DNA from: a virus
Reading direction: 5' to 3' (one strand)
Length of the DNA: 40,507 nt
UHGV virus genome: UHGV-0094371
Shown here: in pieces, positions 3,001 to 35,044 of the stretch
How positions within the stretch are numbered: position 1 is the stretch's first letter
How the letters are laid out: each line of letters starts with the position of its first letter
Position numbers and translations under genes: made by a program
Notes under the pieces: model-generated
What the model saw: the letters and a program-made list of their open reading frames with translations, nothing else
Database searches by the model: none
What the model was told of the DNA's origin: nothing

Positions 3001-3204
3001 GTTCTGGGAGCCGTCAGCATTCTCAATAGCGGTACCATCAAGATAAATGTCTTTGCCGGTTAACTGACCTGAGAACTCACCTTCCCCCAGCGCGATTAAT
3101 AATTTTGCCTTCGCTATAGACTGGAGATCATCCGGCTGTTCGGTAGGCGTGCGGGATTTAGATCCTCCACCTTTACAGCCCTTAATTGCGGTTGCGTTTA
3201 CCAT
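1..3204 (-). CDS. J: tail tip / host-specificity protein J (central tail fibre); ORF runs off the window start, so the C-terminal end is missing
   Basis: ATG at 3204 on minus strand; the frame (plus codons 1-3, 4-6 ...) was open in every segment spot-checked (1-60, 601-660, 1201-1260, 1981-2040). N-terminal translation MVNATAIKGCKGGGSKSRTP...NFSGVTWEFRSGTQAQ resembles the lambda J N-terminus as recalled. Position after I in lambda tail order. Confidence 0.8.
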   Translation of the reverse strand, partial: MVNATAIKGCKGGGSKSRTPTEQPDDLQSIAKAKLLIALGEGEFSGQLTGKDIYLDGTAIENADGSQNFSGVTWEFRSGTQAQKYIQGIPGTENEISVGTEVSSATAWTRTFTNTQLSAVRLRLKWPSLFQQEDDSDLVGYSIKYAIDLQTDGGTWQTVLNTSVTGKTTSGYERSHRIDLPQAGSTWTLRLRKITADANSAKIGDTMMLQSFTEVIDAKLRYPNTALLYIEFDSSQFNGSIPQISCEPRGRVIRVPDTYDPETRTYSGTWTGAFKWAWTDNPAWIFYDLVVSDRFGLGHRLTAANIDKWTLYQVAQYCDQMVPDGKGGNGTEPRYTCNVYIQDRNDAYTVLRDFAAIFRGMTYWGGDQIVALADMPRDVDYSYTRANVVGGRFTYSSSTTKTRYTTALVSWSDPGNAYADAMEPVFEQALVARYGFNQLEMTAIGCTRQSEANRKGRWGILTNNKDRVVSFDVGLDGNIPQPGYIIAVADELLSGKVMGGRISAVNGRVIKLDRVADAAPGDRLILNLPSGASQSRTIQAVNGESVTVTTAYSETPQAEAVWVVESDELYAQQYRVVSVSDNNDGTFSITGAWHDPDKYARIDTGAIIDQRPVSVIPPGNQSPPANIVISSFSVVQQNISVETMRVSWYQAQNAIAYEAQWRRNDGNWVNVPRSSTTSFDVPGIYAGRYLVRVRAINAAEISSGWGYSEEKTLTGKDGNPPKPVGFIASENVVFGIELNWGFPANTDDTLKTEIQYSLTGTEDDAMLLADVPYPQRKYQQMGLKAGQIFWYRAQLVDRSGNESGYTGWVRGQASIDVSDITDVILEDIKGSETFKDLIENAVDSNEKIAGMADEIKNHADELEQQAKDILENADGLAQAEVKIDEISVSMDGMTGGVKNSAIAIIQANLAQVATRKTLSASVAGNSANLDRIDEVIVNDREATARSLLSLQTDVNGNKASINSLNQTFSDYQQAMATQVNSITATVNGHTSAITTNAQAIANVNGDLSAMYNIKVGVSSNGQYYAAGMGIGVGNTPSGMQSQVIFLADRFAVTTAAGNSVALPFVIQN

Positions 3205-3215
3205 ATTGCGCCCAT

Positions 3216-3238
3216 AAAAAAAGCCACCCTTAGGTGGC
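3216..3238 (-). terminator. intergenic hairpin (GCCACC/GGTGGC stem) followed by T7 on the minus strand, between I and J
   Basis: plus-strand aaaaaaagccacccttaggtggc; on minus strand this is a hairpin followed by a T-run. Confidence 0.45.
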
Positions 3239-3256
3239 TAAAGTGGAAAGGTTTAC

Positions 3257-3847
3257 TTATTGCTGATCTTCGACGTAAATGCCGGCTGAAATAATCGCGC
3301 CGCCGATGCGCCGGCGACCGTAAAGCAGCGGTACCGGATACCCTTGTGCAGCGGTATTGGTCACGCCACCGAACGCATAAGAGGCCCGGTTATCTGCATC
3401 CTGCTTGCTGGCCAGCCCCGCTGGTTGAGGGGAAAGCATCTGAACAACCCCGCCAATCATCATTGCGGCACCGAATTTGTATAAGAATGGTGATGCCGCA
3501 GCCCAGGGTGTGAAATTAAGCACCGCCCCAACGGCAACCAGAACTGCACCAAGTATTGTCTGGAGTAATCCGGCCTTTTTGCTCCCGATAATCACCGGGA
3601 CAATGCGAATGACATCGCCGGTGACCGGGTAACCCAGGTCATCAACACCAATATTCTTTTTCCCTTTGAATACTGAATAAGTGAGACCACGGCGTTGGCT
3701 GGAAATCATAAACTGCTCAAAGCCCGGTATAGTCTTTGCCAGCGCAACACTCGCTTCGTTCACGCGGGAAATCAGGCGATGGTGAACTTTACCGAATGTT
3801 TTCCCGAGCACGCCGCCAAGCTCAATGCGGGTCATTACTTCCTGCAT
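3257..3847 (-). CDS. I: tail assembly protein I
   Basis: 196 aa ORF; position and hydrophobic C-terminal half match lambda I. Confidence 0.8.
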   Translation of the reverse strand: MQEVMTRIELGGVLGKTFGKVHHRLISRVNEASVALAKTIPGFEQFMISSQRRGLTYSVFKGKKNIGVDDLGYPVTGDVIRIVPVIIGSKKAGLLQTILGAVLVAVGAVLNFTPWAAASPFLYKFGAAMMIGGVVQMLSPQPAGLASKQDADNRASYAFGGVTNTAAQGYPVPLLYGRRRIGGAIISAGIYVEDQQ

Positions 3848-4566
3848 GTTTCACCTGCCATTACATCTTTATAGCGAACGATCTTCATTGTGCGCTCCTG
3901 CCAGTATCCGCCATAAGGAACACGTTGACTCAGATGCCCGTAAAGATGGTGCAGCAGCATGTTACCCTCCAGTAAAATCCCGGCATGATTCCACTTATCG
4001 GCCTGCACCTGCATGATGACGAGGTCCCCTTCCTGAGGCGGACCATCAAACTCCCTGAATCCGCACTCGTACCAGCACTCCTGATAGAAATTGTCCGGGT
4101 AGTCGTTTTCCCACCAGGGATAATCCACCCGGTAATCGTGGAGCTCGATACAGTGGGTCTGCCGGAAATAGCTCATTACCAGCCCCCAGCAGTCGAAGTG
4201 TCCAAGCACAAACGGACGCTCCAGCAGTGGCAGTTCTCCGCGCGGCTGGATGGTGCGTAAATCCCCCTCCGGCCAGCTCACAATATGCCAGGGTAAAAGC
4301 GTTGCGTCGCATTGCGCTTTATCCAGTTCGCTCGGCTGCGTAGTGGCGTCAGGGTGACTGTGAACGATGGCGATCACCGTACCCCAGTCCTCAGCAGCTG
4401 CATAGTCTTCTGGCGACAGGTGAAAATGTTCTGTCGGCTCGGTAGCGAGGTTACTACATGGAAAATATTTCTCTACCCGGCTCTTTTGCGCCACCACGCC
4501 GCAACACTCACGAGGATATTCAGCTGCAGCATGCGCCATAATCGCATCGATGGTTTTCTGACGCAT
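3835..4566 (-). CDS. K: tail assembly protein K (JAMM/MPN plus NlpC/P60 domains)
   Basis: 243 aa; JAMM-type HSHPdattqpSelD motif visible; conserved position between L and I. Confidence 0.85.
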   Translation of the reverse strand: MRQKTIDAIMAHAAAEYPRECCGVVAQKSRVEKYFPCSNLATEPTEHFHLSPEDYAAAEDWGTVIAIVHSHPDATTQPSELDKAQCDATLLPWHIVSWPEGDLRTIQPRGELPLLERPFVLGHFDCWGLVMSYFRQTHCIELHDYRVDYPWWENDYPDNFYQECWYECGFREFDGPPQEGDLVIMQVQADKWNHAGILLEGNMLLHHLYGHLSQRVPYGGYWQERTMKIVRYKDVMAGETCRK

Positions 4567-4567
4567 A

Positions 4568-5323
4568 TCAACTCCTGATCAGCGACGTACCCTGGAACCC
4601 ACCAAACGAGAGTTCGTTGTTTTCACCGAACCGAAGTTTGCAGGCCGTCAGCGTTCCGTTGCATTCATCCAGTGACGGATCGCTTACCTGGTTGTTGTTT
4701 TTGTCGAAATAGCGCGTACCGGCATAGTCGCAGCCGTCGCCGGTTCGGTACTTGTTCCGGATGCACCATGTGCACAGAGAATGAAGCTGGCGGGTAGGTA
4801 TCATCAGCCCCTGCAGATCCATAGGGCTGGATAGTGTGAACTCAACAACTTCATTGGTTTCACTGCTCTTTGCATCGATGTAGAAAACCTTCAGCTTCTC
4901 CTGGGTCGGATCGGCTGTCGGATTGCCTCCGGTGAAGTTTCTCGCATCGAGATACTTACCAAGGGTGTCATGTATCGTCACCTTCGCCTGCAGCATATCG
5001 TCATACGCCAGACAGAGCGCTGAGATCGAGCTGTCCAGGTTCGCCACACTCAGTTTTGGCTGTGGACTGGTACCGTCCGTAGTCGCTTCAATACCCTCAA
5101 CCTGACACGGCCAGGCTTTATACTCCTCCCCCTGCCACCAGATGGACTTCGCCGGAAGTTTATTCTCATCCCCGCCTGCAGCCTCAATCTCTTCCGGGGT
5201 ATGCGCGATATTATGTGCGTGGAAGCGGAGTACATCTGACATACCGAACGCTGTGCCATCGACAGAAAAAAGCCGGACTTCATTGCCCGGCTCGAGTTTT
5301 TGATAATCAGCATTAAGACTCAT
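4568..5323 (-). CDS. L: minor tail protein L
   Basis: 251 aa; Cys-rich C-terminus (CTWCIR...DGCDYAG...CNGTLTAC) as in lambda L; synteny. Confidence 0.85.
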   Translation of the reverse strand: MSLNADYQKLEPGNEVRLFSVDGTAFGMSDVLRFHAHNIAHTPEEIEAAGGDENKLPAKSIWWQGEEYKAWPCQVEGIEATTDGTSPQPKLSVANLDSSISALCLAYDDMLQAKVTIHDTLGKYLDARNFTGGNPTADPTQEKLKVFYIDAKSSETNEVVEFTLSSPMDLQGLMIPTRQLHSLCTWCIRNKYRTGDGCDYAGTRYFDKNNNQVSDPSLDECNGTLTACKLRFGENNELSFGGFQGTSLIRS

Positions 5324-5667
5324 GGTGCAAATGCCTGTTCAAACGTTGCGGTTACGGTTATCACTTTTACGTTTTTAACCACCTTTTTGAGCGTGTCAGC
5401 CTCGACACGCCACAGCGCGGTATCGCCGAAAGGCGGTGTGAAAATAAACGACTTCACTTTATGCCGCCGAAGGAAAGCGTGAATTTCATTCGCTGTAGTC
5501 GGATCCCCTGAAAAGGAATATTCATAGGTACGAATCTCATCATTCAGGCCGGAGCCGCTCACCTGTGCGTACCCGTCGCCGAACTGGACCTTCCTGACTG
5601 TGTCTTTGCTTCCCTCGGTGGGCTGGCTGGAAACCTTAATGCCCCAGGGGAATGTTTCTATCGTCAT
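5320..5667 (-). CDS. M: minor tail protein M
   Basis: 115 aa; RKVQFGDGY motif resembles lambda M (VRKVRFGDGY); synteny. Confidence 0.85.
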   Translation of the reverse strand: MTIETFPWGIKVSSQPTEGSKDTVRKVQFGDGYAQVSGSGLNDEIRTYEYSFSGDPTTANEIHAFLRRHKVKSFIFTPPFGDTALWRVEADTLKKVVKNVKVITVTATFEQAFAP

Positions 5668-5672
5668 AACTG

Positions 5673-8189
5673 TTACCTGCGATTGGTCGCATTCCAGATA
5701 AGCCCACCGGGCTGGATTGCCCTGGCGATACCATCGTTGACAGATTTGTTAATCACCTGCTGATACGCCTTACCCAGCCTGTCTCCGTCGTTTTGCTGCT
5801 GTGCGTTACCGGAAGCATTCTCGACCGTCACCGGGGCATATACACTGACACCGAAAGGTGCTGCAGCCGGGCCTGTACCACCGCCCCCGACATACCCACC
5901 CGTGGCATACCCTTTCATCATCCGGTAAAGATTGCCGACGCCGATCCGGCTGGTAGCCTCTTTGGTGAAAACAAATTCACCACGGTGAACGACACCTGCA
6001 GGTTCATATTTCCCGCCTGAACCGGTATAACCGCCACCTGCAAATCCCAGCGCGGTTGTCGCTGAATCCACCAGGCCTACCATCGCCTGTTTCAGCAGGA
6101 TCTGTGTCAGCATGGAGAGCGTGGAGCGGGTGAAGTCAGCCCAGTCAGCCTTTCCGCGCGTCAGCATGTCAGCCATATTTTGCCCGATGCCATCAAACGC
6201 ACTGGTGGCAGCCGACTTCATCTGGCCATAAGCATCTGAAGCAGAATCAACATAATCTGCCCATGCGGATTTGGCTCCGGACTGCCAGTCGTCCCGCAGC
6301 TTATCCTGCTCGGCGTAATACGCCTGCAGCGCCTGCAGCTCATTCTGATAACCAGCATCGTTCTCCGAACCACCACCATTTTTCCAGCCCTGAAGAAGCT
6401 GGGCCTCTTCATTGCGACGTTGTGCTGCACGACTGCTCATACCAGCACTTTCCGCAAGGGCTCGGGTTTTCTCGCCGATCTGCGTGACGTATTTTTGGGA
6501 CGTATCCTGCAGGCGATTAAGCCGCTCCTGCGCCACTATCTGATCGCCGAGCTTCGCATTCAGCTCCGCACGGGAAAGCACCTCACTTTTACTGGCCAGC
6601 AGGGATTTTTCCTCAGCAGAAAGCGTTCGGGTCTTCGCGGCCTCTTCCAGAACCGTAAAGCGGGACTGCTGACGCCACAGCTCCTGACGCTGCTGGCTGA
6701 TGGTGTCATTGATGCTCTTATGCTCCTGCAGGGTGCGCAGCTGTGTCTGTAGCTCCAGCGTCTGGGCACTGGCCGTATCGGTGGCACGGGCACCTGCGGG
6801 GGTTCTGATTGCCGGGGTCTTCTTCGGCTTTTTAAGGGTGTCTTCGTACTCTTTTTTCGCGGCAGCCAGGTTGATGTTGTAGTCAGCCTGGAGGATCCGC
6901 CCCTCTTTCAGCGCCTTGTTGAGCTCGCTCTGCCTGGCCGTGTATTTCTCAAGGGCAGTTTGGGTTTTGGCATAGTTGGCCTGAGCCTGCGCGGCATATT
7001 TCTGACGATCGGACTCTGCGACCGCTTCACGGGAAGCATTCTCTTCGTTCGCTTTGGCAATACCAGCCTGCTGCTGCGCCATATCCAGTGCCAGTCTGGC
7101 CGTTTCACGATCATTCCAGAACCGGGCGCGGGCCTCATCATTCACATAATGATCGCCTTTACGCAGATTCCAGATTTCATCAGCCTTTTTAAACGCGGCC
7201 TGGGCTTTTGCCACCATCTCCTGGGCGGTGTCAGGTCTGCCAATATCAAGTGCAGCATCCCACATCGACTTGAAGGCACGCTTCAGGGAATCCGCTGAAG
7301 ACTCAATCGTCCCCATATTGTCGCGGATGGCTTTGGTCTGATCGTTGAATCCGGCTGTAGCCGCCTCGTTAGCCGCCTGCAGTGCGCCAGCCTCATCACC
7401 GGCACGCTGCAGCTGCGCCACATGGGCAATCTGTTCTGCGGTAACGTTATGGAACTGCTGGGCCATCGCGATCAGGCCCGATGTCGGGTCAGTTGCGAGC
7501 TTGCCGTAGGCTGCAGCGACTTTCTCCACCGGCACGCCGGAGGCATCAGTAAACCGCGCCACCGCCTGGCTCATTTCATCAAAGCGCGAGCCAGTACGCA
7601 CACCTGCATTGATAAGCTCGGTCAGGGCTTCACTGGTCTGGTTGAACGTTAGCCCCGCTGCCTGTCCGTTCCGCGCCAGTGCCAGCATGCGGTCAGCTGT
7701 CAGTCCGGCTGTGTTCCCCGACAGTACCAGCGTTTTGTTGAAATCAGACAGAGTGGAAGAGCCCTGGTACCAGGCATAGAACAACGCGCCCGTTGCAACG
7801 GACAATGCACCAATGCCGACCATCAACGGGGAAATCGTCCCCAGCAACGCCCGGAATGTCGGAATGATCCCGCCAAAGGAGTCCTTAACCTGACCGCCCT
7901 GCTGAAGCAGAATCAGCCATGGGTTCTGCCCGCCCGCTAGCTGCGTAGCTATATCGGTAAACTGCGCCGGAAGCATACGCATTGCTGCGTTATACTGGCC
8001 TATTGAAATACCCGCCTTGCGCGCGGCGTTCTCCTGGCGGCTAAAGGACTGCTGGATCCGTAGCGCTTCGTCGTTCGCCGCGCTGCCAGTCTGCTTTAAT
8101 TCTTTTTTGACGTAGTTAAGCTGCTCGTTAAATTTCGTCGAGTTAACGTCAAGGTTAACGACCAGATCACCCACTGCCGTCTGGGCCAT
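5673..8189 (-). CDS. H: tail tape measure protein H
   Basis: 838 aa Ala/Gln-rich coiled-coil protein with hydrophobic segment; position after G/T. Confidence 0.9.
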   Translation of the reverse strand: MAQTAVGDLVVNLDVNSTKFNEQLNYVKKELKQTGSAANDEALRIQQSFSRQENAARKAGISIGQYNAAMRMLPAQFTDIATQLAGGQNPWLILLQQGGQVKDSFGGIIPTFRALLGTISPLMVGIGALSVATGALFYAWYQGSSTLSDFNKTLVLSGNTAGLTADRMLALARNGQAAGLTFNQTSEALTELINAGVRTGSRFDEMSQAVARFTDASGVPVEKVAAAYGKLATDPTSGLIAMAQQFHNVTAEQIAHVAQLQRAGDEAGALQAANEAATAGFNDQTKAIRDNMGTIESSADSLKRAFKSMWDAALDIGRPDTAQEMVAKAQAAFKKADEIWNLRKGDHYVNDEARARFWNDRETARLALDMAQQQAGIAKANEENASREAVAESDRQKYAAQAQANYAKTQTALEKYTARQSELNKALKEGRILQADYNINLAAAKKEYEDTLKKPKKTPAIRTPAGARATDTASAQTLELQTQLRTLQEHKSINDTISQQRQELWRQQSRFTVLEEAAKTRTLSAEEKSLLASKSEVLSRAELNAKLGDQIVAQERLNRLQDTSQKYVTQIGEKTRALAESAGMSSRAAQRRNEEAQLLQGWKNGGGSENDAGYQNELQALQAYYAEQDKLRDDWQSGAKSAWADYVDSASDAYGQMKSAATSAFDGIGQNMADMLTRGKADWADFTRSTLSMLTQILLKQAMVGLVDSATTALGFAGGGYTGSGGKYEPAGVVHRGEFVFTKEATSRIGVGNLYRMMKGYATGGYVGGGGTGPAAAPFGVSVYAPVTVENASGNAQQQNDGDRLGKAYQQVINKSVNDGIARAIQPGGLIWNATNRR

Positions 8190-8487
8190 AGCGCACGCCT
8201 CCTGAAATACCTGCAGCCTTCGCCATCAGCGTATCGTCATCCGGCTCATCAACGTCGATGCTTTCCGATACAGGGGAAAGGATGCTGAAACTGTCCGGTG
8301 TTAATTCCGGATCAGCAAAAAACAGGGTTGAGATGGTGTAGAGCAAACCGGAGAAATGAGCATCCAGCTGCGCATCATGAAAGTAATTGTCCTGGTAGAA
8401 GATTTTCCAGTCGCCGTATTCCGTTGAGGACATGCCAGCAAGCATGGCACGCCAGTCCGGGCGACCGAACTCACGCGCCAGTTTCAT
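8167..8487 (-). CDS. T: tail assembly chaperone, T segment (expected to be made as a G-T fusion by -1 frameshift)
   Basis: ORF lies in the -1 frame relative to G, and that frame is open upstream of its ATG back into the 3' end of G. Confidence 0.65.
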   Translation of the reverse strand: MKLAREFGRPDWRAMLAGMSSTEYGDWKIFYQDNYFHDAQLDAHFSGLLYTISTLFFADPELTPDSFSILSPVSESIDVDEPDDDTLMAKAAGISGGVRYGPDGSG

Positions 8488-8495
8488 GGCAAACT

Positions 8496-8918
8496 TCAGC
8501 TCACTGGCGAGGGCTTTTCCGCAGTAACAGGTTCAGCGGGTTCATTACGTTCTTCACCGGGCTCAGCCTGGTCATCAGTGACCGGCGCAATCATCCCGGA
8601 CAGGAGTTTCACCTTATATTCGGCTTCGGCAACAAGTTCGGTCGGCCATGTCTGCATGACCTCATCCTGAATCTGCTCCACTTCCGCCGCCGCGTTTTCT
8701 CCCTGCGATCCTTTAAGCGCGTGGCCATGCCAGAGTGACATTGCCACCAGATATGCTCCACTCTTCACGGTAAGGGTAATGGCAGCCTGAAAATCACCAG
8801 CTTCAACCGCCTCAAGTTGTTTCAGGTATTCGAGGTATTCAATACGCTGCAGCGCCGACAGCTGGAACAATGTGACGCTGCTGCCGTTACTTTCAAGCAG
8901 CTCGCTCTTTAGAAACAT
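8496..8918 (-). CDS. G: tail assembly chaperone G
   Basis: 140 aa acidic protein immediately upstream of T and H; lambda order. Confidence 0.8.
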   Translation of the reverse strand: MFLKSELLESNGSSVTLFQLSALQRIEYLEYLKQLEAVEAGDFQAAITLTVKSGAYLVAMSLWHGHALKGSQGENAAAEVEQIQDEVMQTWPTELVAEAEYKVKLLSGMIAPVTDDQAEPGEERNEPAEPVTAEKPSPVS

Positions 8919-16057: not shown

Positions 16058-17979
16058 TATTCATCTCCAGATAATGCCCGCGCGTAATCCGCCAGGGTCT
16101 TGTTATTGTTACGGCTGCCTTCTTCCTCCAGCAGGCTGGCCAGAAGTGAATCAAGATTTAGCTGCCAGCGGGATATGCTTATACGCAGCGCCGCCAGTGC
16201 ATAAACAAAGCAATCGAGCGCCTCATTTCGTCGTTTTTTGCTGTCCCAGACGATCTTTTTCTTTCCGTCTACCCATTTTTCCACCTGCTCTTCAGCTGTT
16301 AGTTGTTGGGCCTCTGTTAGATCGTAGATTTCTGGGTTATTCGGGAAATGAACCGCTCCCGCCAGCGGCTCGTCTCTTTGCGCCACCAGCGTGAAACGGT
16401 TATAAATCTGCTCTTTTGCGGTGTCTGTTCCTACCTCTGTGAGGTAAACACCATTCTTGTTACGCTTGCGTGGCATGTTCGCCACTGGCTTTCCATAAAC
16501 CGACGCCCCCTTTATAGGGATCACACGAAACAGACCGTGTTTTTTTGAGCGGTTGTAGACGATGGTGGGATCAATGCCGCCAATATCCCAGCAAGTGCGG
16601 GATATAACCATTTCGAGACCGTTCTGGCGCTTATACGTCCTGTTGATCGCTTCATCAACTCGAGCGAGAGTCGACTCATCATCATGACGACCCATAATGA
16701 TAATTTTGTCGATAAGCCAGCTTTCCTCTCCCGGCCCCCATCCCCAAACACGCATTTCGTAACGGTCAAGCTGGGAGTCAATACCCGCTGTCAGATATGC
16801 CACTCGCTCCGGCACAGACGCTTCAAAGTGCTCTTTTCGTTCCGCTAAAACTTCAGCATCGGGTCGTTCACCTATTTTCGGTTCCCACGTTTCTCCCAGG
16901 GTCGTGTTAACGAAAGTTTTTCGCTTACCCGTATCACCTTTTGTTTTTATCCAGTCCTTGACGATCTGCACCCAGGTTGTGAACGGGCTATATGCGGTCC
17001 AGATGTGGAATGTAACGCTGTCAGGAGGTTCAATTTCGGTACCGGATGAAGAAAACCAGTTAAGGCCGTCTCGTGTCCAGATACCTGTTTCATCACAAAT
17101 ATACCTGGCCTCCAGAAATTCCAGCTCCTGTTGTTTAATCACACAGGCATTGTGTTCACAGAGGTAGTAAACGCTGGCAGGTTCTCCCGGAGACCATTTG
17201 AAGCCAAATGGTGTCTCTTTATCACCGAATTTCAGATACTGCTCTTCCCCACAGTGTGGGCATGGAACATGGAACCGAAGAAAATGTTCAGACTCCTTAG
17301 CAGCTCTTTCTATCTGGCACGTACCTTTGACTTTCGGTGTAGATCCGCGAATGGATTTCGGCCATACAGAACCCTCAATACGCTTATCACCCAGAAAGGT
17401 GGGAGAACCTTCTTTCTCGATGTCATCATCGAAAGCGGCGAGCTCGTCGTAGCCAGCCACATCAACTGATTTTTCACGGTAGTTTTTTGCAGCCTTACCG
17501 CCCAGGCACCAGAAACCACGACCATTCGAGAAACGCTTCATGCTCAGCGTATTGTCCCGGTGTTTTTTACCGTACCAGGGAGCAAGCGCCAGCAACGTCG
17601 GAATATCACGAATGGTCGGTTCTACATGAGACTTCATGAAGTTTTCAGCATCACCGTCGGTTGGTAACCATATTAGGGAGTTACGCTGTTTATGTTGGAT
17701 GAAATATGCGTAAACGCCGAGCAACATTTTTGAGTAGCCGACACGAGCCGATTTAACGACATTCACCTCGCGAATATAGTCATTACCCATCGCATTCATA
17801 ATTGCACGCTGAAATGGCAGTGTTTCCCAGCGCCCTTCCTGGTAGGCAGACTCTTTCGGGAGATAATAATTCTCATCTGCCCATTCAACTGCTGTTTGCG
17901 GTTGCGGCCGGTACAGCGAACGTAACCCCGCCCGCGCAGAGTGCTGCAGCCCCTTAACCTGACTGTTCGATATATTCAC
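16057..17979 (-). CDS. A: terminase large subunit A
   Basis: 640 aa; synteny and length match lambda gpA. Confidence 0.95.
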
Positions 17980-29698: not shown

Positions 29699-30391
29699 AT
29701 GAACATAGGAAAACGAGTCAGACAACTTCGCCAAGCGAAGAACATGAAAATCGCCGATCTCGCTGAAGCAATAGGAGTAGATGCGGCGAACATCTCGCGC
29801 TTAGAAACGGGTAAGCAGAAACAATTTACCGAACAAACACTGAGTAATATTGCCAAGAGCTTAGGTGTTGATATTGCTGATCTCTTTACCTCTGCCCTCA
29901 AAAGTAATACTGTATATAAAAACAGTAATGATGAGGATGTTGCGCAGGTGAAGGATGTGTTCCGTATTGAAATGTTGGATATCAGTGCCAGTGCGGGAAA
30001 TGGCCTTATCCAGGGCGGTGATGTCATTGATGTGATTCATGCCATCGAATACAGAACTGATAATGCTGTATCAATGTTCGGCGGACGACCAGCCAATCAC
30101 ATCAAAGTTATCAACGTTCGTGGGGACAGTATGTGTCCAACCATTGAGCCAGGAGATCTCATCTTCGTTGATGTCAGCATCAATCAGTTTGATGGTGATG
30201 GTATATATGTCTTTGGTTTTGATGACAAAATATACGTTAAAAGACTTCAAATGATTCCTGACAAACTGCTGGTGATTTCTGATAACCAGATTTACCGTGA
30301 ATGGGGAATTACTAGCGAAAACGAACACCGATTCATGGTCTTTGGAAAGGTCTTAATCAGTCAGTCGCAAACCCTTAAGAGACATAATTAA
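29699..30391 (+). CDS. cI: CI-type prophage repressor (N-terminal HTH plus C-terminal S24 LexA-like peptidase)
   Basis: 230 aa; HTH IADLAEAIGVDAANISRLE; S24 motifs RGDSMCPTIEPGDL and YVKRL. Confidence 0.9.
   Translation: MNIGKRVRQLRQAKNMKIADLAEAIGVDAANISRLETGKQKQFTEQTLSNIAKSLGVDIADLFTSALKSNTVYKNSNDEDVAQVKDVFRIEMLDISASAGNGLIQGGDVIDVIHAIEYRTDNAVSMFGGRPANHIKVINVRGDSMCPTIEPGDLIFVDVSINQFDGDGIYVFGFDDKIYVKRLQMIPDKLLVISDNQIYREWGITSENEHRFMVFGKVLISQSQTLKRHN
29908..29927. promoter_or_regulatory. near-consensus LexA (SOS) box TACTGTATATAAAAACAGTA inside the cI coding sequence
   Basis: CTGT-N8-ACAG with flanking TA/TA; 2 mismatches to TACTGTATATATATACAGTA, both in the AT spacer. Confidence 0.5.
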
Positions 30392-30433: not shown

Positions 30434-30683
30434 TCACCCATAATTTTGCACATCTCGCAAAATATTACTTGCGTATATCGCATTTTAATTTTATCTTTTG
30501 TTCCAGACCAACTACAGGATTACAACAAAATCTAGTTGCAACACGGTGCATGGTGCATGTGTCGTAAGCGGTCAGTAATTGTCAAAAACGAACAGTCAGG
30601 ACGACCACGAAGTAGCCGCCGGTGGCGTATGAATGACCGGATGATTCGCTGACAGAAAACTTAGGTTGGGGGTAGAGGTTTAC

Positions 30684-31049
30684 ATGAATCATTTATTCAC
30701 ATGCTCATTTTGCGGAGCAACCGAACTGGGAGCGATAAAGATCGTCGCAAAAGGTGGTAAGGACGAACCTGCCATCTGTTCGGAATGCGTAGTCACATGT
30801 GTAGAAAAAATGATCCTGACTAAAAAATCAGAGGCTGAAAAACCAACCTCTGATAACGAAATAATATCAGTCGATAAAAAACTATTTAAAGAGCTTCTTC
30901 AGCTTGTCCTCAACCATCCTGATTTCGGAAGTAAGCTGGCTGCTGTTGACATTGATAGTAGCTCCACATCGACAAGTGAAACTTTTGTTCGACTTGAGCC
31001 AAGCGATTTTCTTCTTCGTCTTAGTGCCGCACTTAGGGCATGCGGGTAA
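30684..31049 (+). CDS. stand-alone ClpX-type C4 zinc-finger (ZBD-like) protein
   Basis: 121 aa from the ATG at 30684 (GAGG RBS 6 nt upstream); CSFCG-x20-CSEC resembles the ClpX N-terminal zinc-binding domain as recalled. Confidence 0.55.
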   Translation: MNHLFTCSFCGATELGAIKIVAKGGKDEPAICSECVVTCVEKMILTKKSEAEKPTSDNEIISVDKKLFKELLQLVLNHPDFGSKLAAVDIDSSSTSTSETFVRLEPSDFLLRLSAALRACG

Positions 31050-31339: not shown

Positions 31340-31496
31340 TATGGAGAAACTAACTTTTTAGCGCCGGTGCAGAGGCGTTGAGGAACCGAGAATGAACAAT
31401 CCGTTTTTCAAAAATATGGGGTATTCGGGATAAGTAGTTGTTGAAGACCTTTTGCACAGATCTGCAATTCATTTTTATAGACGGTGAAAGTTGTTG

Positions 31497-31525
31497 TTGA
31501 CCTCCTGATCGGATTCCTATAGTGT
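31497..31525 (+). promoter_or_regulatory. candidate early-left promoter (TTGACC-N17-TAGTGT)
   Basis: hexamers read directly; a weak hairpin plus T6 lies at about 31569-31594. Confidence 0.3.
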
Positions 31526-31630
31526 TTGTCTCACGAGGCGTCGAAACCTCTTCTCAGTGCGGTCAGAACCAACCCCGACAGTGTTGGCTTTTTTATGTCT
31601 GTCATTCAGTGAACGCATAGCGCGGTCACA

Positions 31631-31734
31631 TCCCGATCAATGTCGGGAGGGCGACTAATACAACACCCTTACGGGGAATAAGTCCGCGGTCTCACTGAGC
31701 CGTTTCGAACCTCCCGGCACCACTCCGATAGTGG
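31631..31734 (+). promoter_or_regulatory. structured leader upstream of the KilA-N gene with mutually exclusive pairings
   Basis: segment tcgggagg (31643-50) can pair with tcccga (31631-36) or with cctcccggca (31710-19, 10 bp with one G-U); a further hairpin at 31720-34. Confidence 0.35.
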
Positions 31735-31761
31735 TAATTCGAAAAAATCAGTGAGGTCATT

Positions 31762-32622
31762 ATGACTACCCAAATCATCATCTCCGATATCTCTATCCAT
31801 CAGGATTCAAAAGGTCGTTATTCAATCAACGATCTGCATAAAGCTGCTGGCGCTGAACATCGCCACCTGCCTAACTACTGGCTTGAACTACAGCAGACCA
31901 AAGAGTTAATCGAAGAGATTCTAAATACCGGAATCCCGGTAATTAACCCTCCGGTAGCCAGCAGAAAGGGCCGTTACGGTGGCACCTACGTATGCAAAGA
32001 GTTGGTTTACTCCTACGCCATGTGGATCAGCGCCGCTTTTGCACTCAAGGTGATCCGGGCATATGACGCGCTGGTATCTGGCAATGTGGAAGTGAAGCCA
32101 AAGGTTCGCCAGTGTACGGCAACCCAACTCACCCCGCTGCGCCAAACAGCAGAACGGTTAATCACAACTGGCCTCGGCAAAATCTATCCCGACATCTGGA
32201 AGCTGGTTCATCAGCGCTTCGATGTTGAGCATATCCACCAGTTGCAGCCTGAGCAGGTCGGTGAAGCCATCGAGTACCTGAACGTGCTGGAAGGTGAGTA
32301 CCTGGGGCGCGAGACACTTCCGGCAACCCCATCAGTGCATTTCACCAACGAGGAGCTTTGCGCTCTCTGCTGGGTATGGAATGCCGCCGAATACATGCGG
32401 GAGAAGATAGAGCTGGCCTATCCCGCAATGAAAACTCTCAAGTCTGAATACGCACCGAGCTTCTACTCAATGGCATTTGAGTATCAGCGAACACTGGAAG
32501 CCGGTAGAAAGGTTCTCGAACGGGAAACAAAACACATCGTTCCTCATCCTCACAGCGTGTCAGATGAAAACTGGCGGCGAGTCCTGCCTCGTCTGCGCCA
32601 AAATAGCTTACCTCGCGGATAA
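31762..32622 (+). CDS. KilA-N domain protein (paralogue of 25479-26288)
   Basis: 286 aa; GRYSINDLHKAA...GTYVCKELVYSYAMWISAAFALKVIR. Confidence 0.7.
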   Translation: MTTQIIISDISIHQDSKGRYSINDLHKAAGAEHRHLPNYWLELQQTKELIEEILNTGIPVINPPVASRKGRYGGTYVCKELVYSYAMWISAAFALKVIRAYDALVSGNVEVKPKVRQCTATQLTPLRQTAERLITTGLGKIYPDIWKLVHQRFDVEHIHQLQPEQVGEAIEYLNVLEGEYLGRETLPATPSVHFTNEELCALCWVWNAAEYMREKIELAYPAMKTLKSEYAPSFYSMAFEYQRTLEAGRKVLERETKHIVPHPHSVSDENWRRVLPRLRQNSLPRG

Positions 32623-32636
32623 TAAGGGACAAAACG

Positions 32637-33959
32637 ATGAGCGAGATTGCACCAACGAGCCTGTTACACCCTCTGAAAGCTACCGTTCTGGATTTTCAGG
32701 AGGATGAGCACGACTATCAGTTCAAGGTTGAATACCCGGAGCCGACCTGCTGCCATGCCTGCGGTGCAGTGTCTGACATCATCCGCTTTAACAAAAAGCT
32801 GGTGAAGTACCGGGATGTTCCCATGCACGGGAAGCGCGTCACGCTCTGGGTCGTAACACGCCGTTATCAGTGCAAATCATGCAAAGGCACATTCACCCCG
32901 GCCATCCCCGAGATGGCCGAAGCCCACCGCATGACAAAGCGCTGCTATCAGTACATCATTAAACGTGCGCTGACCGGCACTAACGCCAGCGTCGCGCAAG
33001 ATGTTGGCTTTGATGAGTCCGTCACCCGTGGGGTCATCAAGTCCTACTGCGAGCAAAAGGCGAAGACCTATAAGCCTGTGCTGCCGCGAGTGCTGGGCAT
33101 TGATGAGCTGTACCTGAACAAAACCTTCCGCTGTGTCCTGACCAACATCGAGCAGGGAACCATTATTGACATACTGGAATCCCGGCAAAGTAACGTCATC
33201 TACAACCGTCTGGCGCATATGGAAGGCCGTGAGAACGTGCAGATCGTCTGTCAGGATATGTGGAAGCCATACCGTGACGTTGCCAGCCAGCTATTCCCTA
33301 AAGCCAGCATCGTCGTTGACCGCTTCCATATCCAGCGCATGGCTAACGAGGCGATGGAAACGCTGCGTAAGTCGCTCAAAAAGGATCTGACAGTACACCA
33401 CCGACGGCAGCTTAAAGGCGACCGTAAGATGATGTTGATGCGTAAGCGTGACCTTAACCCTATGCAGCAGATGATTATCGAAACGTGGCTGGATCACTAT
33501 CCTGAGTTGGGTCTGGCCTATCAGCTCAAGGAAGAGTTCTTTGATATCTGGCTGGCACAGACTGAACCTGAGGCCAGAATGCGCTATCAGAACTGGCTGG
33601 CAAAGATACCCGATCATCATAAAAAGCACTGGAAGCCGCTGATAACATCCATGACGAACTGGGAGAAAGAGATATTCGCCTACTTCGGCCCGGCCCAGCG
33701 GAAGACCAACGCCTTTACGGAATCCATCAACCGCAAGATGCGCGATCTGAACCGTGATTCGCGCGGAATGTCCTTTGAGATGTTCAGGGCTAAAACACTG
33801 TTCACTCTCAAGCATAAGTTCAGCAAGCCTAAACCAGTGAAAGAATCACCGTTCACGGTTGGCTATGTCACCGCTGGTTCGTGGGATCTGGATGATGAAA
33901 TCCGGGACGATTACGGCGTATCTATCGACGCTATTCTGGAATCCAAAATCGGCGAATAA
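32637..33959 (+). CDS. ISL3-family DDE transposase homologue (zinc ribbon plus DDE domain), with no terminal inverted repeats found
   Basis: 440 aa; N-terminal CCHACG...CKSCKG; LGIDE, VCQDMWKPY, DRFHI and TNAFTESINRKMRDLNR motifs resemble the ISL3 signature as recalled; starts 15 nt after the KilA-N stop. Confidence 0.6.
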   Translation: MSEIAPTSLLHPLKATVLDFQEDEHDYQFKVEYPEPTCCHACGAVSDIIRFNKKLVKYRDVPMHGKRVTLWVVTRRYQCKSCKGTFTPAIPEMAEAHRMTKRCYQYIIKRALTGTNASVAQDVGFDESVTRGVIKSYCEQKAKTYKPVLPRVLGIDELYLNKTFRCVLTNIEQGTIIDILESRQSNVIYNRLAHMEGRENVQIVCQDMWKPYRDVASQLFPKASIVVDRFHIQRMANEAMETLRKSLKKDLTVHHRRQLKGDRKMMLMRKRDLNPMQQMIIETWLDHYPELGLAYQLKEEFFDIWLAQTEPEARMRYQNWLAKIPDHHKKHWKPLITSMTNWEKEIFAYFGPAQRKTNAFTESINRKMRDLNRDSRGMSFEMFRAKTLFTLKHKFSKPKPVKESPFTVGYVTAGSWDLDDEIRDDYGVSIDAILESKIGE

Positions 33960-34043
33960 ATAGCCGCCAACAACACACCCATCATTTTCCATTCAACGGG
34001 GTTCGGGATGTCCTAACAACAGGATTTCCCGAATACCCAAAAT

Positions 34044-34937
34044 ATGTTGGTGTATCGCATTAGTCGCGATTTCACCATCAACCAGGAAGAGCTGGAACAG
34101 CAGCTTGAACTATTTCGCTTCACTCCATGCGGTAGCCAGGATATGGCAAAAACCGGTTGGGTATCACCACTTGGTCAGCTGTCAGATCGCTTGCATCACA
34201 CTGTCAATAATCAAGTGTTGTTGGTTATTCGCCGGGAAGAAAAAATACTGCCATCTCCTGTCATTGCTGAAGAACTGCGCAAGCGTGTGTCGCGTCTGGA
34301 ATCCGATCAGGGGCGTCGCCTCAAAAAAACTGAGAAAGATTCGCTGCGTGATGAAGTGTTGCACTCCCTGCTTCCTCGGGCGTTCTCCAAAAACTCGACT
34401 GTTAGTTTGTGGATCAACGTCACCGACGGTCTGATCATGGTTGATGCAGCCAGCGCTAAACGTGCCGAAGACTCACTGGCCCTGCTTCGTAAAACTCTCG
34501 GTTCTCTCCCGGTGGTACCGCTGACTATGGAAACGCCGATCGAACTAACTATGACCGAATGGGTTCGTTCCGGTAGTGCGCCTGCTGGCTTTGGGCTGGG
34601 TGATGAAGCCGAACTGAAAGCCATTCTTGAAAATGGCGGTATCGGACGCTTTAAAAAACAGGCTCTGGTCAGCGACGAAATTCATGTGCATCTGGAAGCT
34701 GGCAAAGTAGTTACAAAGCTGTCTATCGACTGGCAACAGCGCATTCAGTTCGTTCTTTGCGATGACGGCAGCATCAAGCGCCTTAAGTTCTCTGATGAGC
34801 TGACAGAACAAAACGACGATATCGACCGTGAGGATGCGGCTCAGCGGTTCGACGCTGACTTTGTTCTGATGACCGGCGAGCTTATCTCTCTCATTAACGG
34901 ATTAACAACCTCTCTCGGCGGCGAAGCCAAGCGATAA
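34044..34937 (+). CDS. rdgC: recombination-associated protein RdgC homologue
   Basis: 297 aa; collinear with E. coli RdgC as recalled ([47 protein letters not shown]...LGGEA). Confidence 0.85.
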
Positions 34938-35044
34938 ACACCAGGCAACAATTACCCCATAAGCATGGGTTGGGTTGCTGCACGCTAAATTCAGCAATTC
35001 ATTAATTTAATGGCGCGGTGCAGCGCGCCAATATGGAGAAAACC

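Follow-up and report, generated by a model that had tools for sequence, protein, structure and literature searches.

Locus and transposase gene

UHGV virus genome UHGV-0094371, a stretch of 40,507 nucleotides referred to here as the window, carries at 32637..33959 the transposase gene that is the subject of this report, together with the 2,620-bp insertion sequence (IS) to which it belongs. The gene is an open reading frame (ORF) of 440 aa with an ATG start, and lies on the (+) strand, as do the other oriented features of the locus. A preliminary sequence-only reading had described its product as an ISL3-like transposase embedded in the early-left operon between KilA-N and rdgC, devoid of detectable IS ends, and had left open whether it represented a recent IS insertion or a domesticated transposase. 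The ISL3 assignment was confirmed by Pfam (DDE_Tnp_ISL3, 3.4e-59; Zn_ribbon_ISL3, 3.2e-08), by NCBIfam (transpos_ISL3, 285.6 bits for a cutoff of 180) and by PHROG, whose family phrog_5749 'transposase' matches the protein over its full length. The spacings were correct as well: the upstream KilA-N ORF stops at 32622, 14 nt ahead of the transposase ATG, and the downstream ORF listed as 'rdgC' begins at 34044, 84 nt past the transposase stop.

The sequence-only reading had also proposed to verify the DDE triad by multiple alignment. In an alignment of 24 sequences (the window protein and 23 relatives, down to 33% identity), the zinc-ribbon cysteines C39, C42, C79 and C82 and the catalytic residues D156, D228 and E362 are invariant, and the catalytic core of the enzyme consequently looks intact. 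By each test run on its sequence, the protein is a genuine ISL3-family DDE enzyme. The short direct match AAATAGC at 32601 and 33958, which had been suspected to be fortuitous, occurs 8 times in the whole window for 5.1 occurrences expected by chance; given this frequency near expectation, we agree that it is a chance match.

Boundaries of the element and disruption of rdgC

No inverted repeat found in the region is longer than the one with arms at 31414-31442 and 34015-34043. The terminal inverted repeats, which in ISL3 elements measure about 15-39 bp, are imperfect and share tips identical over 12/12 nt (GGGTATTCGGGA) as well as a common GTTGTT block. The left inverted repeat (IRL, 31419..31449) reads GGGTATTCGGGATAAGTAGTTGTTGAAGACC..., its 12-nt tip being the reverse complement of the right end, which reads ...GGATTTCCCGAATACCC; both ends are the same in the window and in a copy from Escherichia coli GMM060 described below. 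The right inverted repeat (IRR, 33997..34038) contains an internal palindrome, the 42-bp stretch resembling both tips back to back. An 8-bp direct repeat, AAAATATG, can be read directly on either side of the element, at 31411..31418 and 34039..34046, and constitutes its target-site duplication (TSD). The boundaries of the IS are 31419..34038, and these 2,620 bp are one ISL3-family insertion sequence. The ends said to be undetectable thus exist; they were overlooked because the left one lies 1.2 kb upstream of the transposase gene, past KilA-N, and the earlier search hugged the transposase ORF.

Alignment to a related prophage, also suggested by the sequence-only reading, fixed the insertion boundaries. 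In a prophage of E. coli Nissle 1917, rdgC is uninterrupted and provides the exact empty site of the element, with a single copy of AAAATATG. In silico removal of 31419-34046, i.e. the IS and one TSD copy, restores near-identity with Nissle across the junction. The 5' fragment of rdgC (31392..31418; codons 1-9, MNNPFFKNM) joins the 3' remainder (34047..34937), which is collinear with Nissle rdgC, to give a 305-aa RdgC protein starting MNNPFFKNMLVYR and collinear with its Nissle counterpart. The element thus interrupts rdgC of a lambdoid-type prophage at codon 9, having duplicated 8 bp of its target. The reading frame of the 5' fragment enters the IS and ends at a TAA within the left inverted repeat. 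As for the ORF beginning at 34044, which had been taken for rdgC itself, it is a truncated remnant of a split gene whose real start is at 31392: its ATG derives from the duplicated target, it is deprived of the first 8 codons and of the native ribosome-binding site (RBS), and the Pfam RdgC match of the 3' remainder starts only at profile position 7. For annotation purposes, KilA-N and the leader that precedes it (31419-32622) do not belong to the early-left operon of the prophage, and rdgC is disrupted rather than intact from 34044.

Could the mobile entity be restricted to the transposase gene, as an ordinary ISL3 element of ~1.4 kb inserted immediately downstream of a phage KilA-N gene? Typical ISL3 elements are indeed single-gene elements of ~1.2-1.5 kb, as exemplified by a relative from Marinobacter, and modules composed of a C4-like RNA and an antirepressor do exist alone in prophages. 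Yet no inverted repeat is present near 32600-32640, the TSD flanks 31419-34038, the empty site is without KilA-N, leader and transposase together, and KilA-N accompanies the transposase into bcsE, between yobD and mntP, and into IncL plasmids. The TSD and the empty site bound the whole 31419-34038 unit, and the shorter element was rejected as scarcely credible. With its 2,620 bp, its structured RNA and its second ORF, the window element departs from the ISL3 norm (~1.2-1.5 kb, single ORF) and groups with the passenger-carrying members of the family.

An 11-mer resembling IRL with one mismatch was also found at position 16335 of the window; having no partner end, it was treated as a chance occurrence. 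A Megablast search of 31700-35000 against phage genomes returned almost no matches and gave no boundary information. Upstream of the insertion, the prophage codes for an S24/HTH CI-like repressor (29699-30391) and a ClpX-type zinc-finger ORF (30666-31049), in the same order as in the Nissle prophage. A terminator-like hairpin of the IS leader (31569-95) now stands between these ORFs and the remainder of the early-left operon, and may be polar on downstream genes.

Mobility and distribution of the element

A search of complete E. coli genomes found 13 places in E. coli GMM060 (NZ_CM183920.1) that match the region, and a wider query established that the repeated unit corresponds approximately to window positions 31411-34048. 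The GMM060 copy splitting bcsE contains a gene annotated 'P22AR C-terminal domain protein' followed by the transposase gene, and is bordered by the TSD GAAAATTG. Including this one, ten insertions of the unit or of its relatives outside the window are flanked by perfect 8-bp duplications with ~80% A+T. In E. coli LR536431, one copy lies in a prophage tail region (AAGATTGT) and another between yobD and mntP (GTTTTATG). Further duplications are found on a Klebsiella oxytoca IncL/M plasmid carrying blaOXA-48 (CTTTTAAA), at two sites in Pseudomonas entomophila (TTTAATAC and AGGATTTG), in Pseudomonas gregormendelii (CAAAACAA), and around two more distant relatives, L014 (TTTCTTTT) and L015 (GTAAAAAG). 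Copies from E. coli, Klebsiella and Pseudomonas all end in the same 12-nt tips. From these insertions, the mobile unit is the leader, the partner ORF (the KilA-N gene in the window) and the transposase gene together, and the element is active.

These data bear directly on the possibility that the transposase was domesticated, i.e. that it is an immobile phage gene co-transcribed with a phage KilA-N gene in the early-left operon. The close spacing to KilA-N, an orientation identical to that of the operon and the full-length match to phage-protein family phrog_5749 speak for it. Nevertheless, the inverted repeats and the 8-bp duplication, which the sequence-only reading had itself set down as the marks of an ordinary insertion, are present, and a near-identical prophage offers the exact empty site. 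Likewise, 13 places match in GMM060, the catalytic residues are intact, and the unit is found in chromosomal genes, plasmids and other prophages, each time with its own TSD. Because the whole unit moves in this manner, KilA-N belongs to the IS and the gene is not domesticated. Domestication was rejected, as the ends are present and the element is multi-copy, occupies unrelated sites and is not fixed in synteny; we consider its probability negligible. The other option initially envisioned, a recent IS insertion, proved correct. Taken together, the structural conclusions on the element are as good as certain.

The element is rare in E. coli, since only 2 of 5,426 complete genomes carry the full copy. 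On Klebsiella and Enterobacter plasmids of 64-69 kb, it occurs at 92% identity, with a full-length copy in eight of them; the two such plasmids that were examined are both IncL/M plasmids with blaOXA-48. The K. oxytoca IncL/M plasmid NZ_OW967376.1 (L021) harbors two inverted copies arranged tail to tail directly downstream of blaOXA-48 (3001-5620 and ~6238-8860). The element adjoins blaOXA-48 on epidemic IncL/M plasmids, where its annotation is limited to 'KilA-N protein + ISL3 transposase'. Beyond the window, an exact-protein look-up placed its transposase in human-gut metagenomes and always within this prophage, which added no insertion sites. A scan of genome contigs recovered relatives from Pseudomonas and Stutzerimonas only, the enterobacterial copies coming from the E. 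coli and plasmid collections.

The partner ORF and exchange of cassettes

The partner ORF of the window (31762..32622) encodes a 286-aa protein with a KilA-N domain (Pfam, 7e-23) and a P22 antirepressor C-terminal domain (P22_AR_C, 3e-17). The sequence-only reading considered it a phage gene of the early-left operon; it is instead cargo of the IS, absent from the Nissle empty site and located inside the IS in every copy. Comparison of the window and GMM060 copies revealed 34 synonymous for 2 nonsynonymous differences in this ORF, with a ratio of nonsynonymous to synonymous divergence (dN/dS) of 0.016, which indicates that it is under purifying selection. In members of the clade down to ~51% transposase identity, the partner ORF is always upstream of and co-oriented with the transposase gene, with a gap of -4 to +14 nt, and a scan predicted no promoter or terminator between the two in the window. 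Co-transcription of the transposase gene with KilA-N, as initially proposed, is probably right, except that the operon is internal to the IS and not that of the phage.

The two genes differ in their history. Between the window and the plasmid copy, the KilA-N cassette shares 84% nucleotide identity, versus 98% for the transposase gene; between the window and GMM060, dS reaches 0.19 for KilA-N and 0.014 for the transposase gene. Copies differ far more in the partner than in the transposase, so the element is a mosaic, and the contrast points to a recent recombination that replaced the leader/partner segment. Wherever the partner can be classified, its architecture is of the antirepressor type, with KilA-N, ORF6N, Bro-N, Rha or AntA (the last with ANT) as the variable N-terminal domain across the clade; two partners are unannotated. 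A domain common to all partner proteins was sought and none was found; only the partners of Pseudomonas and of phages have a common C-terminal half. The partner protein would thus be exchangeable cargo of the antirepressor type, a label that derives from its domain architecture.

This diversity weighs on the idea that the partner is a dedicated transposition cofactor, i.e. an accessory protein binding DNA at the IS ends. KilA-N, Bro-N, Rha and AntA are domains of DNA-binding type, and the partner ORF is both under purifying selection and always linked to the transposase gene, as would befit a cofactor. A protein recognizing the ends should nonetheless be conserved, and partners of different lineages are without detectable homology despite identical IS tips. 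This lack of conservation argues against a dedicated cofactor, which we deem very unlikely, and for exchangeable cargo.

The cassettes probably come from phages. Nucleotides 114-348 of the leader are ~89% identical to regions located upstream of antA/antB in E. coli prophages lacking the IS. More precisely, window positions 31532-31766, from the a1/b1 to the a2/b2 sites described below, are 80-90% identical to sequences upstream of antA/antB in prophage tail or baseplate regions without IS, in E. coli C5 (L026, 4001-4803) and about 10 other genomes. These regions are the likely phage source of the cassette, and since ~89% identical leaders occur IS-free in prophages, cassettes are exchanged with phage modules of the immunity-I (immI) type.

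Two E. coli prophages exhibit incomplete arrangements. Strain GF131 (L024, 4001-5102) has the left IS end and an 89%-identical leader followed by a Bro-N partner, and strain 167 (L025, 4001-4619) has the left IS end and an 89%-identical leader followed by a short KilA-N gene. Neither locus has a transposase gene or a right end; they are either IS remnants or recombinants between IS-borne and phage-borne cassettes. Separately, 147-aa ORFs were noticed near three distant relatives (L014, L015 and L017); the three proteins are unrelated and their presence was dismissed as a coincidence.

A structured RNA and its probable targets in the leader

A 343-bp non-coding leader separates the left end from the KilA-N ATG. 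It contains an 85-nt C4-like RNA (31642..31726) that gives a full-model Rfam match to sRNA-Xcc1 (RF02221; 70.4 bits for a gathering score of 53, E 4e-12) and has a fold z-score of -2.6. The match is with RF02221 and not with the C4 family RF01695, and Rfam assigns sRNA-Xcc1 to no clan.

Within the RNA, segment b' (CTCACTGAG, 31691-99) occupies the loop of hairpin 2 and segment a' (GTTTCGAA, 31702-09) a single-stranded joint. When the RNA was searched for complementarity to the remainder of the leader, the longest stretches were exactly those of a' and b' with two pairs of sites. First, a1 (TCGAAAC, 31541-47) and b1 (CTCAGTG, 31553-59), identified by complementarity search and co-variation, are the upstream targets (31541..31559). 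Second, a2 (TTCGAAA, 31738-44) and b2 (TCAGTGAG, 31748-55) are perfect 7- and 8-nt complements positioned over the KilA-N Shine-Dalgarno sequence (31738..31755). The b' core CTCACTGA pairs with b2, covering GAGG and ending 6 nt ahead of the ATG, and has b1 as its upstream partner; likewise, a' (G)TTTCGAA pairs with both a2 and a1.

Comparison of copies argues that these complementarities are maintained. In the Pseudomonas oleovorans element, the same positions bear other sequences, b' being CCCTCTGA with TCAGAGGG and TCAGAGG as its targets, and a' being ACGCCAA with TTGGCGT at both sites. The four enterobacterial copies have nearly the same RNA scaffold, whereas b' reads CTCACTGA, CTTACT or TCTTTTGG, with b1 and b2 matching each time; in LR536431, a', a1 and a2 also change together. 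Over seven specificities, the two-block complementarity averages 14.1 nt for cognate versus 5.5 nt for non-cognate combinations, and the true pairing alone among 5,040 permutations attains the observed total. The RNA and its two target sites are thus, from the pattern of substitutions, co-evolving. Because cognate complementarity between the RNA and the RBS tops all 5,040 permutations, pairing of the RNA with both target sites in vivo is probable, with strong support at the sequence level. This co-variation provides the sRNA-Xcc1, C4 and IsrK families with a concrete cis target, namely the RBS of the adjacent ORF, and should help to read 'orphan' Rfam hits.

The same organization recurs in relatives. 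The Pseudomonas elements whose transposases are 69-75% identical to that of the window display an isrK/c4-a1b1 segment, then a C4 RNA, a Bro-N protein gene and the transposase gene; their RNA matches RF01695 C4 at 56-63 bits in a homologous position, and they match Rfam isrK above threshold, including a counterpart of the terminator stem. In one P. oleovorans copy (L005), c4-a1b1 scores 36.9 bits, below the gathering score of 46.7, and the a1/b1-terminator segment of the window is below the isrK threshold. At 57% identity, L014 has an sRNA-Xcc1 RNA (80 bits), then a small ORF, an AntA/ANT antirepressor gene and the transposase gene.

The leader has further features. A subterminal repeat of the IRL motif, AGTTGTTGTTGACC, in direct orientation, overlaps a promoter-like TTGACC-N15-TATAGT (31497-31523) in a stretch (31489..31523) that is nearly invariant among the four enterobacterial variants. 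Past a1/b1, the hairpin with a T-run detected by terminator scan (31569..31595) would mark the end of a putative short a1/b1 RNA, i.e. an IsrK-like isoform. The closing stem of the C4-like RNA is followed by ACCA (31718-31721), compatible with processing by RNase P.

A model for the control of the element

The explanation that best accounts for the locus, and that we hold to be very probable, is a 2,620-bp ISL3 IS inserted in rdgC and carrying an immI-type switch together with an antirepressor-like ORF. Under this explanation, the leader would operate like the switch of phage P1, with a decoy a1/b1, a terminator, a C4-like RNA, and a2/b2 over the RBS of the next gene. By analogy with P1 c4-icd-ant and Gifsy-1 IsrK, the C4-like RNA would block translation of the partner ORF; the untranslated partner ORF would in turn hold down the transposase through Rho-dependent polarity or loss of translational coupling, and the short a1/b1 RNA could titrate the C4-like RNA. 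Because the RNA would act in trans, resident copies are expected to repress each other as well as incoming copies of the same specificity, while other specificities would escape, and entry into a cell lacking the cognate RNA would elicit a burst of expression. From the phage precedents, we infer that the RNA gates translation of the partner ORF and, by polarity, of the transposase; for the transposase itself, we see the chances of such control as evenly balanced.

The main competing explanation is that the RNA and antirepressor form a self-regulating cassette, or 'moron', without influence on the transposase, benefiting the IS or its host through its protein, which might for instance inactivate the repressor of a prophage. 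The partners lack homology and are freely swapped, the cassette diverges between copies much more than the transposase gene, and ~89% identical cassettes occur in prophages without IS; several insertions are moreover located in prophages or phages, and the transposase gene has a Shine-Dalgarno sequence of its own. What this explanation does not predict is that the partner abuts or overlaps the start of the transposase gene in every member down to ~51% identity, which is unexpected of random cargo, or that no internal transposase promoter is detected. In P1, the same switch controls a downstream gene through polarity. We regard cargo devoid of any control over transposition as somewhat unlikely.

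Several points weigh against the regulatory model and the evidence on which it is built. The plausible Shine-Dalgarno sequence AAGGGA ahead of the transposase gene would make its independent translation possible. TTGACC-N15-TATAGT was not called by a consensus promoter scan; since its short, 15-nt spacer kept it out of that scan, its role as promoter of the leader and operon is only inferred. L015 and L017 (51-53% transposase identity) have a partner ORF and no Rfam match above threshold, a divergent RNA not having been searched for in them, and the 44%-identity Marinobacter relative has neither RNA nor partner ORF and is a plain single-gene IS; for these reasons, ISL3 transposition as such does not require the switch. 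Repeated capture of phage immI cassettes, without selection for 'heteroimmunity' of the IS, could be enough to explain why the RNA specificities are so diverse. Finally, regarding mobility, the bcsE copy alone was inspected among the 13 GMM060 places.

If the RNA also gates the transposase, the element would be sensing its copy number by a means new among IS. A bolder extension, which we put forward as speculation and judge rather improbable, is that this ISL3 clade has permanently recruited the immunity-I switch as a transposition controller, with copy-number sensing, 'heteroimmunity groups' and a burst in naive cells, and that the antirepressor released during the burst induces resident prophages, so that prophage-borne copies are packaged and disseminated. 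Were it true, an insertion sequence would behave like a miniature temperate-phage regulatory circuit. Independently of this extension, the present analysis shows that a phage immunity-I cassette, in which a structured antisense RNA precedes a gene of the antirepressor type, can be built into an IS and move with it, and that such cassettes swap between IS copies and prophages, with at least seven RNA/target specificities on one conserved scaffold.

Relationship to known systems

Among named elements, the nearest is probably ISPst9 of Pseudomonas (Stutzerimonas) stutzeri AN10, which Christie-Oleza and colleagues reportedly described as an unusually long ISL3 element of ~2.5 kb, present in multiple copies and generating 8-bp AT-rich duplications. 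Its transposition via a circular double-stranded intermediate has been reported, as cited in PMC3812183. The closest relatives of the window transposase (69-75% aa identity) belong to 2.6-kb Stutzerimonas and Pseudomonas elements with identical 12-nt tips. Compared with these copies, the window element has a transposase at most ~75% identical, carries KilA-N/P22AR_C instead of Bro-N, and differs in RNA specificity. The ISfinder naming convention rests on at least 95% aa or 90% nucleotide identity to a reference element; since no Pseudomonas copy exceeds 75% transposase identity, a new name would be called for if the window element is absent from ISfinder. In the literature searched, no publication was found to describe an RNA switch in ISPst9 or to link C4, sRNA-Xcc1 or IsrK RNAs to ISL3 elements. 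As far as found, then, the mechanism of the IS is ordinary and its regulatory cargo is unusual and apparently undescribed.

In phage P1, Biere and colleagues are said to have found in 1992 that repression of icd translation by C4 leads to Rho-dependent loss of ant transcription. The a' and b' segments of the C4 antisense RNA of P1 and P7 pair with a2/b2 over the RBS upstream of ant, a1/b1 being a second copy of the targets located further upstream (Citron and Schuster, 1990, as summarized in PMC7313666). The window element shares with the immI region of P1 and P7 the order of a1/b1, structured RNA with a'/b', a2/b2 over the RBS and antirepressor-type gene; its specificities are lineage-specific, as in P1/P7 heteroimmunity, and in L014 the RNA and the Ant gene are separated by a small ORF at the place of icd in c4-icd-ant. 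Unlike its phage counterpart, the module of the window is carried by a transposable element and has a transposase gene downstream; furthermore, its RNA is best matched by sRNA-Xcc1, and its antirepressor-like protein is KilA-N/P22AR_C rather than P1 Ant. The isrK-orf45-anrP locus of Gifsy-1 in Salmonella produces a short terminated leader RNA with target-like sites (PMC4825925). The window resembles it in the succession of a short terminated leader with targets, a structured RNA and an antirepressor-type gene, whereas no transposase is involved at the isrK locus.

The sRNA-Xcc1 of Xanthomonas campestris (RF02221; PMC2996969) belongs to the same RNA fold family as the window RNA. Members of this family immediately precede ORFs with toxic or regulatory functions, for example symE and genes for ORF6N proteins (10.1101/2025.06.18.660453; PMC7313666), and the title of Chen et al. 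(2011, RNA Biol 8:947) qualifies sRNA-Xcc1 as 'transposon- and plasmid-transferred'. The Xanthomonas RNA resides in an integron cassette and is discussed as a trans-acting virulence small RNA, whereas the RNA of the window has an evident cis target and an ISL3 carrier.

The function proposed for the window RNA is that of multicopy inhibition in IS10, where the antisense RNA-OUT acts in trans to keep the transposase mRNA from being translated. RNA-OUT is a simple antisense RNA encoded in cis over the transposase start, unlike the tRNA-like structured RNA of the window, which is encoded upstream and targets the RBS of another ORF. ISPpu12 is an ISL3 element with extra ORFs; transposases of its family are distant matches (~68% nucleotide identity over 300 bp), and its passengers are unrelated to those of the window element.

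Derivatives and other members of the clade

A miniature element of 42 bp (GGGTATTCGGGATGTCCTAACAACAGGATTTGCCGAATACCC, TSD TATTTTTT) was found on plasmid pHCM1 of Salmonella Typhi (NZ_CP029935.1; L022, 3496-3537). It consists of two IS tips back to back and is equivalent to window positions 33997-34038. In the 95-99% identity band, the plasmid search returned 156 records; each sampled one consisted of a 37-bp match (97%) to the right end of the IS, on large Salmonella or E. coli plasmids where the site is unannotated. From its sequence, the 42-bp element looks like a minimal non-autonomous derivative mobilized by the transposase via the internal palindrome of the right end.

P. oleovorans DSM 1045 (L005/L006) has two copies on one contig, ~42 kb apart and in the same orientation, whose outer flanks are both CATTAACC and whose inner flanks differ. 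This is the pattern expected if both copies and the intervening 42 kb had inserted as a composite transposon.

Two tandem elements of the clade occupy the left end of the genome of an isolated phage, Pseudomonas phage vB_Pae_HB2107-3I (ON778006.1; L023, 1-4300), with right ends at 2486 and 4299; the left end of the first one was not found within the first 5 kb, the stretch examined. The first element codes for a partner with a Rha domain (gp01) and a 73%-identical transposase (gp02) annotated 'hypothetical', and the second for a 112-aa ORF (gp03) and an ISL3 transposase (gp04). In P. gregormendelii (L010, 3285-3475), an RT-15 RNA (RF03018, 183 bits) lies 66 nt past the right end of the IS, and is probably a mere neighbor of the insertion site.

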